DNA from: Crocinitomicaceae bacterium
GTDB lineage: Bacteria; Bacteroidota; Bacteroidia; Flavobacteriales_D; Crocinitomicaceae
NCBI GenBank assembly: GCA_042094515.1
Contig: JBELDA010000005.1
Coordinates: 22,077 to 86,076, forward strand
DNA: 64,000 nucleotides
Direction: 5' to 3'
Part shown: positions 17,961 to 24,719 of the stretch, in pieces
Position numbering within the stretch: the stretch's first letter is position 1
How the letters are laid out: each line of letters begins with the position of its first letter
Notes under the pieces: generated by a model
What the model was told of the DNA's origin: nothing
The model's database searches: none
Seen by the model: only the letters and a program-made list of their open reading frames with translations
Position numbers and translations under genes: made by a program

Positions 17961-19061
17961 ATGAAACCGCTGATTAGTATAATATTATTCATTTTCTTAG
18001 GTCAATTTTCTTTTTCTCAGTGTGATGGGGTTACCATTGAATCCATAACTGATCCTGGTCCATATTCCGTTGCAACATTAAAAGAAGGGGTTGACGATAT
18101 CCGAAATGGACCAGATTATGATGGTGCGACCATTTTTTATCCTACAAATGGGACACCTCCATATGCAGGAATTGCTATAATACCTGGCTATTGCGGAGTA
18201 GAAACAGACATTCAGGACTGGGGGGCTTTTTATGCTTCTCATGGAATTATAGCCATAACTCTGGGAACAAATGATCCATGCGCAGATTGGCCATCGGCTA
18301 GAGCAACTGCTTTACTAGATGCTATAATCACCGTAAAAGAGGAGAATTCCCGGTCAAGTTCTCCTTTACAGGGAAAAGTGGATGTAAATAGCTTCGCTGT
18401 TTCTGGTTGGTCTATGGGTGGAGGAGGCTCCCAACTTGCAGCTTCTATAGACCCCTCATTAAAGGCGGTGATTGGATTGTGTCCTTGGCTGGATTTAAAT
18501 GGTTTTCAACCCTCTGATCTCATACATGATGTTCCTGTTTTAATATTTACGGGACAAAATGATGATATTGCCAATTCTGCAGAGTATGGTTATATGCATT
18601 ATCAAGGAACTCCTTCAAATACTGATAAGCTTTATTTTGAAATTGAAAACGGTGACCATGGTGCTGCAAATTCGCCAGGCTTAGCCGCTGGAGAGGTCGG
18701 GATTTATGCGCTTTCTTGGTTGAAAACGTATTTACAAGATGATCCTTGTTATTGTGGGTTTCTATTGGAGACTCCATCAAATTCTTCAGATTATGAAACA
18801 AATATTGAATGCTTGAATACTGCTGTTGAAGGAATAAATGAAACCATTCATTTTATCCATCCGAATCCGGTAATAGACTATATTGAATTAAATAATTCAG
18901 GAATAGAAAAAGAATATTCCCTAAATAGCTCTGATGGCAGAACGGTTAAGTCTGGTATTCTATCTCCTGGCTATAATAAGATCATATATAAATTCAATTC
19001 CTCACAGATCTATTTTCTTATCTCAGGTGGTCAGTCGTATAAATTGATAAGCTTAAAATAG
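17961..19061 (+). CDS. secreted PETase/cutinase-like polyester hydrolase (dienelactone-hydrolase fold) with T9SS C-terminal sorting domain
   Basis: Signal peptide. Blocks matching IsPETase as I remember it: FYPTN, IAIIPGY, ASHGIIAITLGTN, SSSPLQGKVD...GWSMGGGGS (Ser151 at 18411-18413), PSLKAVIGLCPW, VPVLIFTGQNDDIA, FEIENGDHGAANS. The C-terminal ~70 aa (HPNPVIDYIELNN...YFLISGG.SYKLISLK) looks like a type-A T9SS CTD. Confidence 0.8.
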   Translation: MKPLISIILFIFLGQFSFSQCDGVTIESITDPGPYSVATLKEGVDDIRNGPDYDGATIFYPTNGTPPYAGIAIIPGYCGVETDIQDWGAFYASHGIIAITLGTNDPCADWPSARATALLDAIITVKEENSRSSSPLQGKVDVNSFAVSGWSMGGGGSQLAASIDPSLKAVIGLCPWLDLNGFQPSDLIHDVPVLIFTGQNDDIANSAEYGYMHYQGTPSNTDKLYFEIENGDHGAANSPGLAAGEVGIYALSWLKTYLQDDPCYCGFLLETPSNSSDYETNIECLNTAVEGINETIHFIHPNPVIDYIELNNSGIEKEYSLNSSDGRTVKSGILSPGYNKIIYKFNSSQIYFLISGGQSYKLISLK

Positions 19062-20787: not shown

Positions 20788-21750
20788 TTAGAACGAAGGA
20801 CAAGAAATCTTTCTAAATACTTTTGGTTTTCTTCTACACTTGAGATTGAATCCCATTGAAACTTCATGTGACCCACCAGAAATACCATTTCCTAATTTAG
20901 AAACGGTAATATCATAGCTATAACCGAGCTTAAACTTATCAGTAGTAATACCAAAGCAAAGAATAAAGGCGTCTCTATTTCTATACCATGCACCTACGGT
21001 AAAGTTTCCATACTTTACATAAGTACCAATATTTAATTCCTGAAATCCATTTTGATATTGATAGATGATGTTAGGCATGATACTCGTCGTATTGTAATAT
21101 TTACCTCTATTGCCAAGTTTAATATTGGCACCGACATGACCGGTAAGACGCATTGGTAAACGAGATTCACCAAGAATCATCGATTCATCTGGTCTGTTAA
21201 TATGATGAGCGGCAAATCCAAAATAGAAGTTTTTACCAAAACCTACCAATCCTGCTGAGGCATCAAAAAAACCTCTTCTACCGTTTCCACGCGGTACATC
21301 CCCTGTTTGATAGATAAATCCTCTACGTGGATCTATCATGTCGCCAAAAGTGAGCTTGTCCCAGTCCAGGAATTTTTGAAACCAAGCAGCTCGAGCACCA
21401 AACATGATAGAGAATTTACGATTGACTTTCAGATTATACGAATATATGGCGCCAAGCATAGATGTGGTAATGGTGCCTTGTCCTTGCTGATCGTGCATGG
21501 CAATAATACCAATACCTCCTTGAATTCCTTTTGAATATGTGTCAAAAGCAGCAGAGTAGGTTACATAATTACCAGTAAGCTGTGGCCATTCGTTTCTGTA
21601 ATTCAATGAAACTCTTGGACAACCAGAGGAACCTGCCAATGCTGGATTCAAATAAATTGGATTTGAGAAAAATTGAGTAAAAGTTGGATCCTGAGCATTA
21701 AGCTGTGGGCTTATACAAACTATTGCTATAATAAAGAGTAATTTTTTCAT
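20788..21750 (-). CDS. PorP/SprF-family type IX secretion system membrane protein
   Basis: 320 aa. The signal peptide is followed by the family-typical QDPTFTQFFSNPIYLNPALAGS, then YRNEWPQL. The C-terminus is ...SHEVSMGFNL...ISCPSF. Confidence 0.8.
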   Translation of the reverse strand: MKKLLFIIAIVCISPQLNAQDPTFTQFFSNPIYLNPALAGSSGCPRVSLNYRNEWPQLTGNYVTYSAAFDTYSKGIQGGIGIIAMHDQQGQGTITTSMLGAIYSYNLKVNRKFSIMFGARAAWFQKFLDWDKLTFGDMIDPRRGFIYQTGDVPRGNGRRGFFDASAGLVGFGKNFYFGFAAHHINRPDESMILGESRLPMRLTGHVGANIKLGNRGKYYNTTSIMPNIIYQYQNGFQELNIGTYVKYGNFTVGAWYRNRDAFILCFGITTDKFKLGYSYDITVSKLGNGISGGSHEVSMGFNLKCRRKPKVFRKISCPSF

Positions 21751-21753
21751 ACG

Positions 21754-23388
21754 TTAAAATGTTATGTACCTTCTTGTTTTCTTACTGATGTCAGAGTTTA
21801 TTCTTATTGTTAATTGATGAGTATAAAGATGTTGATTCAAAGTTGGAATATATGATTTTGTCGATTGAAGAATAAGTGCAAATCGATCCAGTGACAAACC
21901 AATTGAGCCAGAGTATTGGTCATTGAAATCTGCAGCTGCTCCTATATAAAGTTTATCCAAGTCAAGTGAAAAACCTCCGAAGTATTGATTGTTTTTATTT
22001 GCGGATCGCATGTAAAAATAAGGATGAAAGCTCAACTTTTCATTCCTAGAAACGTATTGTGTTCCTGCAAAAATGCTATACACGGTTGGTGTTCTGAAGT
22101 TTGTTGATTCAGTATTTTGATAAATGTTCTCTGAGTGATTCAAGATGTTAGAGGCTTGAGCTCCAATATAAAATATGTTGGTATTTAAAGTGAAGCCAAT
22201 ATCTAGATCCCTATACCATAGTTTTCGTCCTACATTTTGAGAACTGTCATAAGAGAATAGCTGAGGTGAATCTGAATTAAAAACGGCCAATGAATTGTTT
22301 TCTACTTTATCTCGATCTAATAATTTATTACCTATTTTTAGTTTGGCTACGGGTTCAATTAAAATATTTCTGCTAATAGCTATTTTTGGTGATACGATAA
22401 GCGCCCCGTTCCAATCTTTAATACTTCCATCTGCATAGTAATCATAGTTTACTTGAGCTCCAACACCAGAACGAATGCCCCTTGCATAAGTATCAAATGT
22501 GATTTGCTGAGATAGTTTACGTTGATCTGATTCCATCCATCTTATACGTGAAATAGATTGGAATCTTGTTTGGGAAACCGAGCCAATAGAACTAAGATTC
22601 GCATCTATAGAGGAAGTTTGAGGAATTAAGTAATGGTGGTCTCTATAATTGCTCAAAGCCACATTTTTTGATAGGGCATGATCAATTTTATTAATCACTT
22701 CTTTTGTCTTGTCTTTGATGCGAAACGAATTGGATTCACTATTTCTTGATTCCTTTGCATCAGATGATAAATCAGAATTTTCACCAATTGAGATATTCGT
22801 TTTATGTTTTGCCAACTCAAGATCTTGGTTAACGAATAATCTTTCGACTAATAAATTATTTACATTAAAAGATTCTGATACCTGAAAAATTTCTTGATCC
22901 ATCAAGCCAATTGATTTCTTCGGTTTTTTATAGAAGCTTGGAGGCAATTCAGTAGCAAGGTAATCCGAGCTTGATGATTTCACATCTTTTTTTATTGAAC
23001 TCTTATTGTCATTTATTCGTTCAGGCTGTTGAATGTCGATTGAGAGTTCTTTTGAGTTTTTGATTCTATTTTCGCTCAAAACGGGAGAGACCGAGTTTAA
23101 CGGATCATTAAAATGAATTTGTCTACCAATGAGCAGAATAATAATGATTCCAATTGTGTTTATTATGGCAAAAACCCTTCTGTTTACCGTTTTCTTTTGA
23201 ATTTGAATATCGTTTACAAAAGAATTGGACATTTTAATATTGGACATTTTCCACATGTCTAAATCAACCTCAAGTTCTGGGTGATTTAGGATATAATTCT
23301 CCAGTAATGACTCTTGTTCAGAACTCAAATTGCCTTCGACATAGTCAAAAAGCCAACGGTCTATGTTGTCAAAATTTGGGGTTATCAT
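21754..23388 (-). CDS. putative anti-sigma factor fused to a PorP/SprF-like C-terminal domain
   Basis: The N-terminus DRWLFDYVEGNLSSEQESLLENYILNHPELEVDLDMW is anti-sigma-like. There is one TM helix at aa 71-88 and a low-complexity linker. Residues ~250-544 align by eye with the adjacent PorP/SprF protein (FDTYARGIRSGVG vs FDTYSKGIQGGIG, among others). Overlaps the ECF sigma gene by ATGA. Confidence 0.6.
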   Translation of the reverse strand: MITPNFDNIDRWLFDYVEGNLSSEQESLLENYILNHPELEVDLDMWKMSNIKMSNSFVNDIQIQKKTVNRRVFAIINTIGIIIILLIGRQIHFNDPLNSVSPVLSENRIKNSKELSIDIQQPERINDNKSSIKKDVKSSSSDYLATELPPSFYKKPKKSIGLMDQEIFQVSESFNVNNLLVERLFVNQDLELAKHKTNISIGENSDLSSDAKESRNSESNSFRIKDKTKEVINKIDHALSKNVALSNYRDHHYLIPQTSSIDANLSSIGSVSQTRFQSISRIRWMESDQRKLSQQITFDTYARGIRSGVGAQVNYDYYADGSIKDWNGALIVSPKIAISRNILIEPVAKLKIGNKLLDRDKVENNSLAVFNSDSPQLFSYDSSQNVGRKLWYRDLDIGFTLNTNIFYIGAQASNILNHSENIYQNTESTNFRTPTVYSIFAGTQYVSRNEKLSFHPYFYMRSANKNNQYFGGFSLDLDKLYIGAAADFNDQYSGSIGLSLDRFALILQSTKSYIPTLNQHLYTHQLTIRINSDISKKTRRYITF

Positions 23389-23882
23389 GCGAGCTTATTC
23401 AATCCTTTTAACTGTTTTTTAATTTTCATTCTTGCACGGAAGAGATATACCTTTACTTGCGACGGAGACAAATCAAGAATTTGTCCAATATCATCGTAAG
23501 AGTAGCCCTCTATGTCTCTTAACAGAATAATACTTTTTTGAATTGGAGGTAAAATGTTCACTAGCCTTTCAACCATTTGCATAGATTCAAAAGTCGAATC
23601 TGGCATGCTTGCTTTTTCAGGAAGTGATTGGCTATCCATGTAGCGCGTACGTGACTTTTTGTTTAAAAAGTTAATCATCGCGTTGTGCGTACATTTATAT
23701 AACCAAGATTTTACTCTTTCCAAATCAATTTTTTTTCTGTTGATCCATAATTTTTCAAAAACATCTTGAACAATGTCCTTTGCATCCTCTTCGTTTCTCA
23801 TAAAGTGAAACGCATAACGATACAGTGGAGCACTAAGCTCATCAATCACATTGTTATATTCATGTCTTTTCAAAACTTGCAA
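23385..23882 (-). CDS. RNA polymerase ECF-type sigma-70 factor
   Basis: 165 aa. Region 2 is LYRYAFHFMRNEEDAKDIVQDVFEKLW. Region 4 is SIILLRDIEGYSYDDIGQILDLSPSQVKVYLFRARMKIK. TTG start. Confidence 0.85.
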   Translation of the reverse strand: MQVLKRHEYNNVIDELSAPLYRYAFHFMRNEEDAKDIVQDVFEKLWINRKKIDLERVKSWLYKCTHNAMINFLNKKSRTRYMDSQSLPEKASMPDSTFESMQMVERLVNILPPIQKSIILLRDIEGYSYDDIGQILDLSPSQVKVYLFRARMKIKKQLKGLNKLA

Positions 23883-23963: not shown

Positions 23964-24719
23964 TTAAAATCCAAAATTATCAAATCCCTCGCTTGAAAGA
24001 TTTTGATAATTTTCTTCATTAAATTCGAAAAGTTGTGAGGGTTTATGTGGTACACCCACCTGCTTTTCGTTAAGAGGGGTAAGGATTTGTAGATTTAAAA
24101 TCTTTCTTCTAAAATTCCTTTTGTCTAAGGGTTTATTTAAAATGCTCTCGTATAATTTATGGAGCTGGCTCAACGTAAACTTTTGGGGGAGAAGATTAAA
24201 TCCAATAGGTTGAATTTTAATTTTTCTTTTTAATTGACTGAGTGCACATTGCAAAATTTCATAATGATCAAAAGCAAGCTCGTGAATTTCATTAATTGGG
24301 GCCCAGCCTGCACTTTCAGCGAATGAAGACGCTTCAGGGTTAAAGTCATGCATTTTCACTAAAGAAAAATAAGCTACAGTTATAACTCTTGCGTCCGGTT
24401 CTGCTCTCAATGATCTTAGCCATTCCTTATCAGATTCTTTTCCCATTCTTTTTGGGTCTCCAAACGCACCAATTTGTTCCAAGTATATATTGTCAATACC
24501 GGTAAGTTCGTTCAAAACTCTATAGGCTGCTTCGTCAAGAGTCTCAATATCATATATCAAATCTCCAGGAACCGCAAGTCTTGGTCGTCCTGTAGATTTT
24601 GATAAACCACTGTCTATTAGCAAACAATGAAGTTGATCAAAGTCAAAACCAAAAATCACACAATCCACAGATACATTCGGATTTAGTTCTAAAGCTTTAT
24701 TTTTGTTTTTAGATTTCAA
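23964..24719 (-). CDS. NrtR-like transcriptional regulator (degenerate Nudix domain + C-terminal winged-helix)
   Basis: 251 aa. Nudix-fold N-terminus with a degenerate Nudix box GDLIYDIETLDEAAYRVLNELTGI (24495-24566). The C-terminal LPQKFTLSQLHKLYESILNKPLDKRNFRRK is typical of the NrtR wHTH. Confidence 0.65.
   Translation of the reverse strand: MKSKNKNKALELNPNVSVDCVIFGFDFDQLHCLLIDSGLSKSTGRPRLAVPGDLIYDIETLDEAAYRVLNELTGIDNIYLEQIGAFGDPKRMGKESDKEWLRSLRAEPDARVITVAYFSLVKMHDFNPEASSFAESAGWAPINEIHELAFDHYEILQCALSQLKRKIKIQPIGFNLLPQKFTLSQLHKLYESILNKPLDKRNFRRKILNLQILTPLNEKQVGVPHKPSQLFEFNEENYQNLSSEGFDNFGF

Follow-up and report, generated by a model that had tools for sequence, protein, structure and literature searches.

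A PETase-like esterase of the PET27/PET30 branch with a conserved cysteine pair and a diverged, predicted secretion tail in an uncultured Crocinitomicaceae/Flavobacteriales lineage

Introduction

The PET27/PET30 family of Bacteroidota and its architecture, a signal peptide, a catalytic domain and a T9SS/PorC domain of ~62-64 residues that belongs to the type IX secretion system (T9SS), were published in 2022 (Zhang et al. 2022, PMC8767016); a PETase profile had been published before (Danso et al. 2018), and the search of the 2022 study applied a bit-score threshold of 298.7. All four enzymes of that study, PET27 to PET30, hydrolyse polycaprolactone (PCL), bis(2-hydroxyethyl) terephthalate (BHET) as well as Impranil; foil made from poly(ethylene terephthalate) (PET) is attacked by PET27 and PET30 only, and weakly, PET27 yielding 174 nmol terephthalic acid in 120 h and PET30 38 times less. 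PET27 and PET30 also hydrolyse para-nitrophenyl esters, are cold-active and keep their activity unchanged when the PorC domain is removed, and the substrate-binding motif typical of the bacteroidetal enzymes is Phe-Met-(Trp/Tyr/Ala) (PMC8767016). Here we describe a gene of this kind in a stretch of 64,000 nucleotides from a Crocinitomicaceae bacterium (assembly GCA_042094515.1, contig JBELDA010000005.1, positions 22,077 to 86,076 of the forward strand), which we call the window. Its product of 366 residues, referred to below as the query, is in all likelihood a secreted PETase-like serine carboxylesterase of the PET27/PET30 branch, and it belongs to a subclade marked by two cysteines.

PET hydrolases have been divided into classes against which such a protein can be read. 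Compared with type I enzymes, those of type II have three extra residues in the β8-α6 loop and an additional disulfide, C203-C239 in the numbering of IsPETase; Ser at position 238 marks type IIb and Phe or Tyr type IIa, and position 159 is Trp (Joo et al. 2018, PMC5785972). Type III PETases of Halopseudomonas and Stutzerimonas have the nucleophile motif GHSQG, Thr at the position of Y87 and Tyr at that of W185 (PMC13396203).

Results

The open reading frame (ORF) is complete, 366 codons and a stop, and lies at 17961..19061 of the forward strand exactly as it had been described in an earlier note written from the sequence alone. With the Pfam family PF12740 (PETase), whose cutoff is 28 bits, its product scores 178.9 bits over residues 32-277 (E=1.6e-52), whereas the other α/β-hydrolase models of Pfam stay below their own cutoffs, with a weak match to dienelactone hydrolase (DLH; E=0.0048). 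In a search of the Protein Data Bank the best match by a wide margin was 7pzj_A (E=4.9e-102), aligned over residues 16-364 and thus with the tail included; IsPETase, LCC and other polyesterases followed at ~1e-40 to 1e-48, the IsPETase entries at ~1e-42. The entry 7PZJ is PET30ΔPorC of Kaistella jeonii (PMC8767016). An AlphaFold2 (AF2) model built with 106 homologues has a mean predicted local distance difference test score (pLDDT) of 89.8 and shows an all-β C-terminal domain joined to an α/β domain by a disordered linker. Foldseek places this model on 7PZJ with E=1.4e-35, a template modelling (TM) score of 0.91 and a root-mean-square deviation (rmsd) of 1.5 Å, and on the IsPETase and LCC structures with TM scores of 0.87-0.91 (IsPETase ~0.90, LCC ~0.88); polyesterases and cutinases make up all of the best structural matches. 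The placement of the protein among PETase-like polyesterases, which the earlier note had proposed, is borne out by the profile, the sequence match to a solved structure and the modelled fold alike. Identity with the BHET hydrolase BdeA was considered and rejected, as the NCBIfam equivalog NF051441 scores 132.3 bits, far under its cutoff of 520. Homologues are numerous (the first search gave 751 matches, and the representative library yielded 1035 at E<=1e-3), and their public labels are T9SS type A sorting domain protein, lipase, dienelactone hydrolase and PET-hydrolase family protein.

Residues were mapped in an alignment of the query with IsPETase, LCC, PET30 (P0063 among the homologues, whose residue numbering is exactly that of PET30 in PMC8767016), PET27 (P0068) and four closer homologues. 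The IsPETase sequence was verified against 6qgc_A (290 of 290 residues identical) and the LCC sequence against the LCC entries. Over the catalytic domain the query is 56.5% identical to PET30 and 56.1% to PET27, compared with 37% to IsPETase and 35.5% to LCC; over the full length the values for PET30 and PET27 are 46% and 45%. The likeness to IsPETase on which the earlier note was built survives in the mapping of residues, and the close kinship does not. The triad Ser151/Asp201/His233 aligns with S160/D206/H237 of IsPETase and S165/D210/H242 of LCC, Met152 with M161 of IsPETase, Trp150 with W159 (His in LCC) and Gly198 with C203, and the triad, oxyanion and clamp residues are invariant among the 106 homologues. 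The triad had been placed at these residues before, down to the codon of the nucleophile (18411-18413), as had Tyr77, Met152 and Trp176, and the alignment equally bears out the Trp rather than His ahead of the nucleophile, the Gly198/Ala235 pair at the C203-C239 positions and the Gly234 at that of S238.

The β8-α6 loop of the query aligns with that of IsPETase without a gap, whereas LCC shows a gap of three residues. Assignment to type I (LCC/TfCut2-like, with His at 159, Phe or Tyr at 238 and no extended loop) was rejected on account of Trp150, Gly234 and the extended loop, and assignment to type IIa or IIb because the additional C203-C239 disulfide is absent. Of the other marks of type II, the Trp is present as Trp150, and position 234 is Gly, neither Ser nor Phe/Tyr. 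Type III was rejected on the GWSMG motif, Tyr77 and Trp176. Judged by these residues the query fits neither type I nor type II, and PET27 and PET30 have exactly the same combination; the PET27/PET30 family as a whole shows the mix (Trp before the nucleophile, extended loop, no C203-C239) that had been put forward as unusual. The architecture of that family, with a signal peptide, a catalytic domain and a T9SS/PorC domain (PMC8767016), is found in the query too, and the alignment with 7pzj, the tail profile described below and the two-domain model agree with the earlier proposal in this respect. The query departs from the Phe-Met-(Trp/Tyr/Ala) motif in having Tyr77-Met152-Trp176, the motif being a described trait and no strict criterion.

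The cysteines of the query stand at positions 21, 78, 107, 174, 263, 265 and 284. Cys265 and Cys284 align with C262 and C285 of PET30, so that the C-terminal pair keeps the position of the conserved disulfide as had been supposed, and Cys265-Cys284 is most likely that bond. Cys21, Cys174 and Cys263 are invariant or nearly so across the Bacteroidota homologues; Cys21 belongs to the mature N-terminal Gln-Cys, Cys174 lies two residues ahead of the clamp Trp and Cys263 is the first Cys of a CYC motif, and a Cys21-Cys263 bond that tethers the N-terminus is possible, a single disulfide being reported in the paper on PET30 (PMC8767016). Among the 106 homologues Gln20 is nearly invariant and Cys21 invariant. 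As the conserved Gln20 fits the Q-rule of Bacteroidetes, by which signal peptidase I (SPI) cuts before Gln (PMC5837995), and as the cleavage that SignalP predicts for PET30 at A23|Q24 (PMC8767016) falls at the equivalent position, we infer that SPI cuts the query before Gln20. A lipoprotein reading of the FSFSQC motif was rejected, since Gln at -1 is unfit for a lipobox and the conserved Gln20 fits the Q-rule.

Of the best 120 homologues, 35 form a group with the query. The full-length members of this subclade, 34 with the query, are at least 58% identical to one another and at most 54% identical to all other sequences, and the 26 positions that separate them from the rest cluster around the active-site loops. 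Among its marks, Cys78-Gly79-Val80 stands directly after Tyr77, Cys107 is inserted ahead of Ala108 and Trp110, and Trp176 is followed by an insertion of five residues (LDLNGF); further marks are Ala235 and Tyr209, the latter being His in the other Bacteroidota members. Of the features that truly set the subclade apart, namely Tyr77 for Phe, Cys78/Cys107, Trp110, Tyr209 and the LDLNGF insertion, the earlier note had Tyr77 only. Cys78 and Cys107 occur together in every member of the subclade, down to 58% identity, and in none of the 83 other full-length homologues. Among the best 150 representatives of 50%-identity clusters no Cys is found at position 78, the C203/C239 pair of the IsPETase type co-occurs in nine, and Tyr stands at the clamp position in 28; the full Tyr-Met-Trp set is also present in some other uncharacterised Bacteroidota homologues. 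As all members of the subclade have the Cys78/Cys107 pair and no other homologue examined does, the chimera-like P0036 described below apart, the pair is, on the evidence of the alignments, a trait of single origin that has been strictly kept. Because position 78 is that of IsPETase T88, a subsite II residue (PMC5785972), and because the two loops follow neighbouring strands, a disulfide between Cys78 and Cys107 is plausible.

A protein encoded on a contig of 4245 nt in the European Nucleotide Archive (P0036; 52% identity) also contains C78 and C107. It was discounted as an independent lineage with the cysteine pair, for its N-terminal half is nearly identical to that of another homologue, P0014: about the first 160 residues are near-identical, after which the sequence continues as another PET27/PET30-like type without Cys174, Cys265 and Cys284. 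P0036 arose either by chimeric assembly or by natural recombination.

The last part of the protein had been taken for a type A T9SS C-terminal domain (CTD), with a match to TIGR04183 named as the check. That check failed on the tail by itself: TIGR04183 gives the last 81-82 residues 13.2-13.3 bits (E=0.064-0.066) against a curated cutoff of 23, and Pfam PF18962 gives no match to the isolated tail even at E<=10. As PF18962 was silent and TIGR04183 sub-threshold, profile-profile and structural comparisons were used. Of the 12 closest tails only five reach E<=1 with TIGR04183, whereas the tails of PET27/PET30-type relatives are positive in 11 of 11 cases, down to E=5e-13, and a profile of the 12 closest tails aligned by hhalign with a profile of the TIGR04183-positive tails gives a probability of 98.0% (E=1.8e-13, 77 columns). 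A hidden Markov model made from the TIGR04183-positive tails alone finds the query ORF with 25.9 bits (E=3.1e-8) and no other ORF in the window. The homology thus holds transitively. An alignment of 30 tails is almost gapless, the PNP motif is kept, Gly326 and Gly332 are present in at least 90% of the tails, and the Lys of KLIS in the last strand is invariant in the 12 closest ones. The tails of the close relatives are well conserved, with a mean column identity of 62%, and the domain is therefore under selection.

A model of the isolated tail (pLDDT 80) is a small β-sandwich with six strands of at least three residues and short bridges. Its best match by TM score and rmsd is 8glj_D (TM 0.71/0.77, rmsd 1.9 Å, 74 columns, with a Foldseek E-value of just 0.04), the CTD of FspA bound in the T9SS translocon of Flavobacterium johnsoniae. 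The E-values of the isolated tail are weak in general, the top ranks are held by generic β-sandwich domains of glycosidases, and immunoglobulin (Ig)- and FN3-like domains match as well; the 8glj_D match is supportive, not decisive. CTDs of this kind are compact Ig-like β-sandwiches of about seven strands, in which a conserved last-strand Lys and loop Gly are described as relevant to function (PMC11285876). Profiles and models together identify the tail as a diverged type A T9SS CTD, which would function as a T9SS signal.

The coordinates of the gene, of the features of its product and of the neighbouring genes are collected in Table 1. A gene for an M14-like peptidase begins 15 nt past the esterase stop on the same strand, no terminator-like site lies between the two, and the pairing is kept in relatives of the subclade (loci L001, L007 and L008) and not seen beside PET30 or PET27. 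Given the short gap, the common strand, the lack of a terminator-like site and the conserved pairing, the esterase and the M14-like gene are probably co-transcribed. The M14-like product is a secreted zinc carboxypeptidase homologue that has no NCBIfam match. Beyond it, on the opposite strand, follow the genes of an apparent operon for a PorP/SprF protein, a 544-residue protein and an ECF sigma factor, and next to this operon lies the gene of a Nudix-related regulator. In the 544-residue protein an anti-sigma-like part is fused to a domain of the outer-membrane PorP/SprF type, an odd topology, and the order is kept in loci L007 and L008. Upstream of the esterase gene trmD lies on the opposite strand. 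A search of the whole 64-kb window with Rfam/cmscan found no family at its gathering score, and no rRNA, tRNA-like element, riboswitch or other known RNA. A scan for sigma-70 promoters gave fewer matches than shuffled sequences, the consensus not being that of Bacteroidota promoters.

In the index of a metagenome-assembly collection 68 blocks contain the exact protein, without a name there and with the same neighbourhood in the places shown. The same gene order is found in relatives at 59-65% identity, including a metagenome-assembled genome (MAG) of Crocinitomicaceae, and the PET30 and PET27 genes have unrelated neighbourhoods. In a scan of species-representative genomes all 12 matching loci were in MAGs of Crocinitomicaceae/Flavobacteriales, the best 77% identical, and the isolate names, among them MED-G58, UBA952, FRAM18, SI073 and those of the Tara runs, point to the water column of the sea. 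The GC content is uniform across the locus, without an anomaly. Recent horizontal acquisition was rejected on the unremarkable GC content and the synteny conserved in relatives; as the synteny is conserved, the GC content uniform and every matching locus from Crocinitomicaceae/Flavobacteriales, the gene is inherited vertically and belongs, in syntenic order, to the core genes of a marine lineage of these bacteria that is uncultured and apparently widespread.

Table 1. Positions in the window of the esterase gene, of features of its product and of neighbouring genes
Feature	Coordinates	Strand	Basis
Complete ORF, 366 aa and stop: PETase-like esterase with T9SS C-terminal domain	17961..19061	+	Translation; exact protein on many metagenome contigs
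Sec/SPI signal peptide, aa 1-19 (MKPLISIILFIFLGQFSFS); inferred cut before Gln20 (Q-rule)	17961..18017	+	AF2 helix at 2-18; conservation of Gln20/Cys21
Cys21, of the mature N-terminal Gln-Cys	18021..18023	+	Conservation
α/β-hydrolase catalytic domain, aa 32-277 by Pfam; structural domain ~aa 20-285	18054..18791	+	PF12740; Foldseek match to 7pzj; pLDDT mostly >90
Tyr77 (oxyanion hole and aromatic clamp; IsPETase Y87) and subclade-specific Cys78 (IsPETase T88)	18189..18194	+	Alignment
Subclade-specific loop after β4: Cys107 (one-residue insertion), then Ala108-Asp109-Trp110 (Trp110 = IsPETase Q119)	18279..18290	+	Alignment
Trp150-Ser151-Met152 of GWSMG: nucleophile Ser151, oxyanion Met152	18408..18416	+	Alignment, conservation
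Cys174	18480..18482	+	Conservation
Trp176 (IsPETase W185), then subclade-specific loop aa 177-182 (LDLNGF), five residues longer than in PET27/PET30	18486..18506	+	Alignment
Catalytic Asp201	18561..18563	+	Alignment, conservation
Catalytic His233, Gly234 (IsPETase S238), Ala235 (IsPETase C239)	18657..18665	+	Alignment
Cys263 (18747..18749), Cys265, Cys284; Cys265-Cys284 at the place of the crystal-verified PET30 disulfide C262-C285 (PMC8767016)	18747..18812	+	Alignment; cysteines invariant or nearly so
Flexible interdomain linker, aa 288-294	18822..18842	+	AF2, pLDDT <50
Diverged T9SS type A C-terminal sorting domain, aa 299-366: PNP motif, Gly326, Gly332, last strand YKLISLK with conserved Lys	18855..19058	+	Profile homology, fold
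M14-like peptidase gene, 569 aa	19077..20786	+	Weak Pfam match (E=1.9e-5), N-terminal part only; HxxE-like HPGE
Apparent operon of the next three genes	20788..23882	-	
PorP/SprF family T9SS membrane protein gene	20788..21750	-	PF11751, E=2.8e-57; TIGR03519, 236.7 bits (cutoff 90.55)
544-aa protein: anti-sigma-like N-terminus, hydrophobic segment, C-terminal half matching PorP/SprF	21754..23388	-	E=1.5e-14, under the TIGR03519 cutoff
Extracytoplasmic function (ECF) sigma factor gene	23385..23882	-	
NrtR-type Nudix-related transcriptional regulator (NUDIX and NrtR winged-helix domains), beside the ECF sigma operon	23964..24719	-	Domain content

Discussion

Based on these data we propose, with considerable confidence, that the gene encodes a secreted PETase-like serine carboxylesterase of the Bacteroidota PET27/PET30 branch. 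The preprotein would be exported by Sec and cut by SPI before Gln20, whereupon the C-terminal β-sandwich (residues ~299-366) would direct the folded enzyme of ~29 kDa to the T9SS for passage through the outer membrane; removal of the CTD would then follow, as is normal in established T9SS biology. Catalysis would proceed through Ser151, Asp201 and His233; the main-chain amides of Tyr77 and Met152 would make up the oxyanion hole, subsite I would have its aromatic clamp in Tyr77 and Trp176, and subsite II would be shaped by Trp150 together with the extended β8-α6 loop. We expect a mesophilic or cold-active, promiscuous esterase of short- and medium-chain esters and of aliphatic, PCL-like polyesters, with BHET a likely substrate and PET film attacked weakly at best; by analogy with the characterised enzymes, activity on PET is plausible and probably weak. 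The native role would probably be the scavenging of natural esters or polyesters in seawater, and the conserved neighbourhood to a gene for a secreted M14-like peptidase points in this direction.

Several observations weigh against one or another part of this proposal. On the side of secretion, the tail alone stays under the TIGR04183 and PF18962 thresholds and the usual Gly of the GxY motif is replaced by Gln in the close relatives, and the efficiency of export is uncertain for these reasons; of the T9SS, the components considered are the PorP/SprF genes in the window. On the side of the substrate, Tyr209 occupies the position of IsPETase Ser214, a residue that we take to be linked to the mobility of W185. 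Among the characterised enzymes PET28 and PET29 are active on PCL and BHET and inactive on PET, and the PET30 variants F80Y and Y178W, both changes toward Tyr-Met-Trp, lost activity on BHET and PET (PMC8767016), so that sequence is no predictor of PET activity. A search of the literature found no characterised PETase from Crocinitomicaceae or UBA952 and no characterised member of the subclade.

The same residues could be taken to indicate far more than a weak polyesterase. If the clamp and the extended loop, combined with Trp150 and a small residue at 234, conferred high ambient activity on PET, the enzyme would be on par with IsPETase, and by the definitions of PMC5785972 its Y-M-W subsite I is indeed identical to that of IsPETase and LCC, Trp150 corresponds to W159, Gly234 is small like S238 and the loop is extended. 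We find this very unlikely, as the query is just 37% identical to IsPETase, has Tyr209 and His213 in place of S214 and I218, and lacks the C203-C239 disulfide that is reported to be crucial for the activity of IsPETase (PMC8767016), while its nearest characterised relatives, PET27 and PET30, are very weak on PET and PET30 lost activity when changed toward Y-M-W. A more restrained version, in which an undescribed Cys78-Cys107 disulfide adjacent to the active site acts jointly with Tyr-Met-Trp to make an ambient polyester or PET hydrolase clearly better than PET27 and PET30, strikes us as doubtful, if worth keeping in mind; the bond may, if that were so, be an independent counterpart of C203-C239 that stiffens the substrate-binding loops.

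The location of the enzyme can be read otherwise as well. A tail that scores 13 bits where TIGR04183 requires 23, is missed by PF18962, reaches E<=1 in only five of its 12 closest relatives and resembles generic Ig/FN3-like domains at weak Foldseek E-values might be a decayed or repurposed β-sandwich, a binding module or spacer, the enzyme then being periplasmic or released in another way. This seems improbable to us, for the tails of the close relatives are conserved and align almost without gaps to bona fide CTDs, the PNP motif, both glycines and the last-strand Lys (features of PMC11285876) are kept, the domain forms the very C-terminal end of the protein, as that of PET27 and PET30 does, and PorP/SprF genes are adjacent. 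Scarcely credible, in our view, is the reading as a lipase or dienelactone hydrolase of lipoprotein type, or otherwise bound to the cell, whose part in intracellular or periplasmic metabolism would have nothing to do with polymers. Annotations of relatives as lipase or dienelactone hydrolase, the weak DLH match and the Cys that follows the signal peptide (FSFSQC) would speak for it, but DLH and the other α/β-hydrolase models remain under their cutoffs against the 179 bits of PF12740, Gln at -1 is unlike a lipobox whereas the conserved Gln20 suits SPI cleavage, and every one of the best structural matches is a polyesterase or a cutinase. A secreted esterase of the PET27/PET30 branch, delivered by its diverged CTD, is the reading that we retain.

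PETase-like enzymes with T9SS tails have already been described in Bacteroidota, and the query is one more of a known kind; only two features, the pair Cys78/Cys107 and the insertion in the loop, could raise it above the routine. In the subclade the clamp found in the best PET hydrolases, Tyr-Met-Trp, goes together with a conserved pair of cysteines by the active site that is unique to it and with a lengthened loop behind the Trp, and the enzyme bears on whether pelagic bacteria contribute to the turnover of polyesters in the sea. Should the disulfide be real, the pair would be an alternative means of stabilising the active site and of use in enzyme engineering; should the enzyme behave like PET30, it would be just another weak, promiscuous esterase.

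Set beside the known systems, the query stands nearest to PET30 of Kaistella jeonii (7PZJ) and PET27 of Aequorivita sp. CIP111184. At the same length (366/364 residues) it has, like these, the SPI signal, the Gln-Cys N-terminus, the catalytic domain and the T9SS/PorC tail. It further shares with them GWSMGGGG as its nucleophile motif, an Asp-His-Ser triad, the extension of the β8-α6 loop and, at the C-terminus, the conserved disulfide, and like them it is without the C203-C239 disulfide, with Gly and Val or Ala instead. It differs in its clamp, Tyr-Met-Trp against Phe-Met-Trp in PET27 and Phe-Met-Tyr in PET30, in the extra Cys78 and Cys107, in Trp110, in Tyr209 for His and Gly234 for Ser, in the LDLNGF insertion, in its separate subclade, in a tail sub-threshold for TIGR04183 and in its gene neighbourhood. 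The tail shares with type A CTDs (TIGR04183/PF18962; 8GLJ chain D) the place at the extreme C-terminus, the length of ~70 residues, the all-β sandwich, the PNP motif, the glycines and the last-strand Lys, but has diverged under the family thresholds.

With IsPETase of Ideonella/Piscinibacter sakaiensis (type IIb, PMC5785972) the query has in common the fold, the catalytic triad, Tyr-Met-Trp in subsite I, a Trp ahead of the nucleophile, an extended loop of equal length and the position of the C-terminal disulfide (C289 of IsPETase, C284 of the query). It departs from it in overall sequence, in the missing C203-C239 pair, in Gly at S238 and in Tyr209/His213 at S214/I218, and its T9SS tail and bacteroidotal origin contrast with an enzyme of Burkholderiales that has no such tail. 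LCC and the type I enzymes share the fold, the triad, the Tyr-Met-Trp clamp and a single conserved C-terminal disulfide with the query, whereas LCC has His before the nucleophile and Phe at 238, is shorter by three residues in the β8-α6 loop and lacks a T9SS tail.

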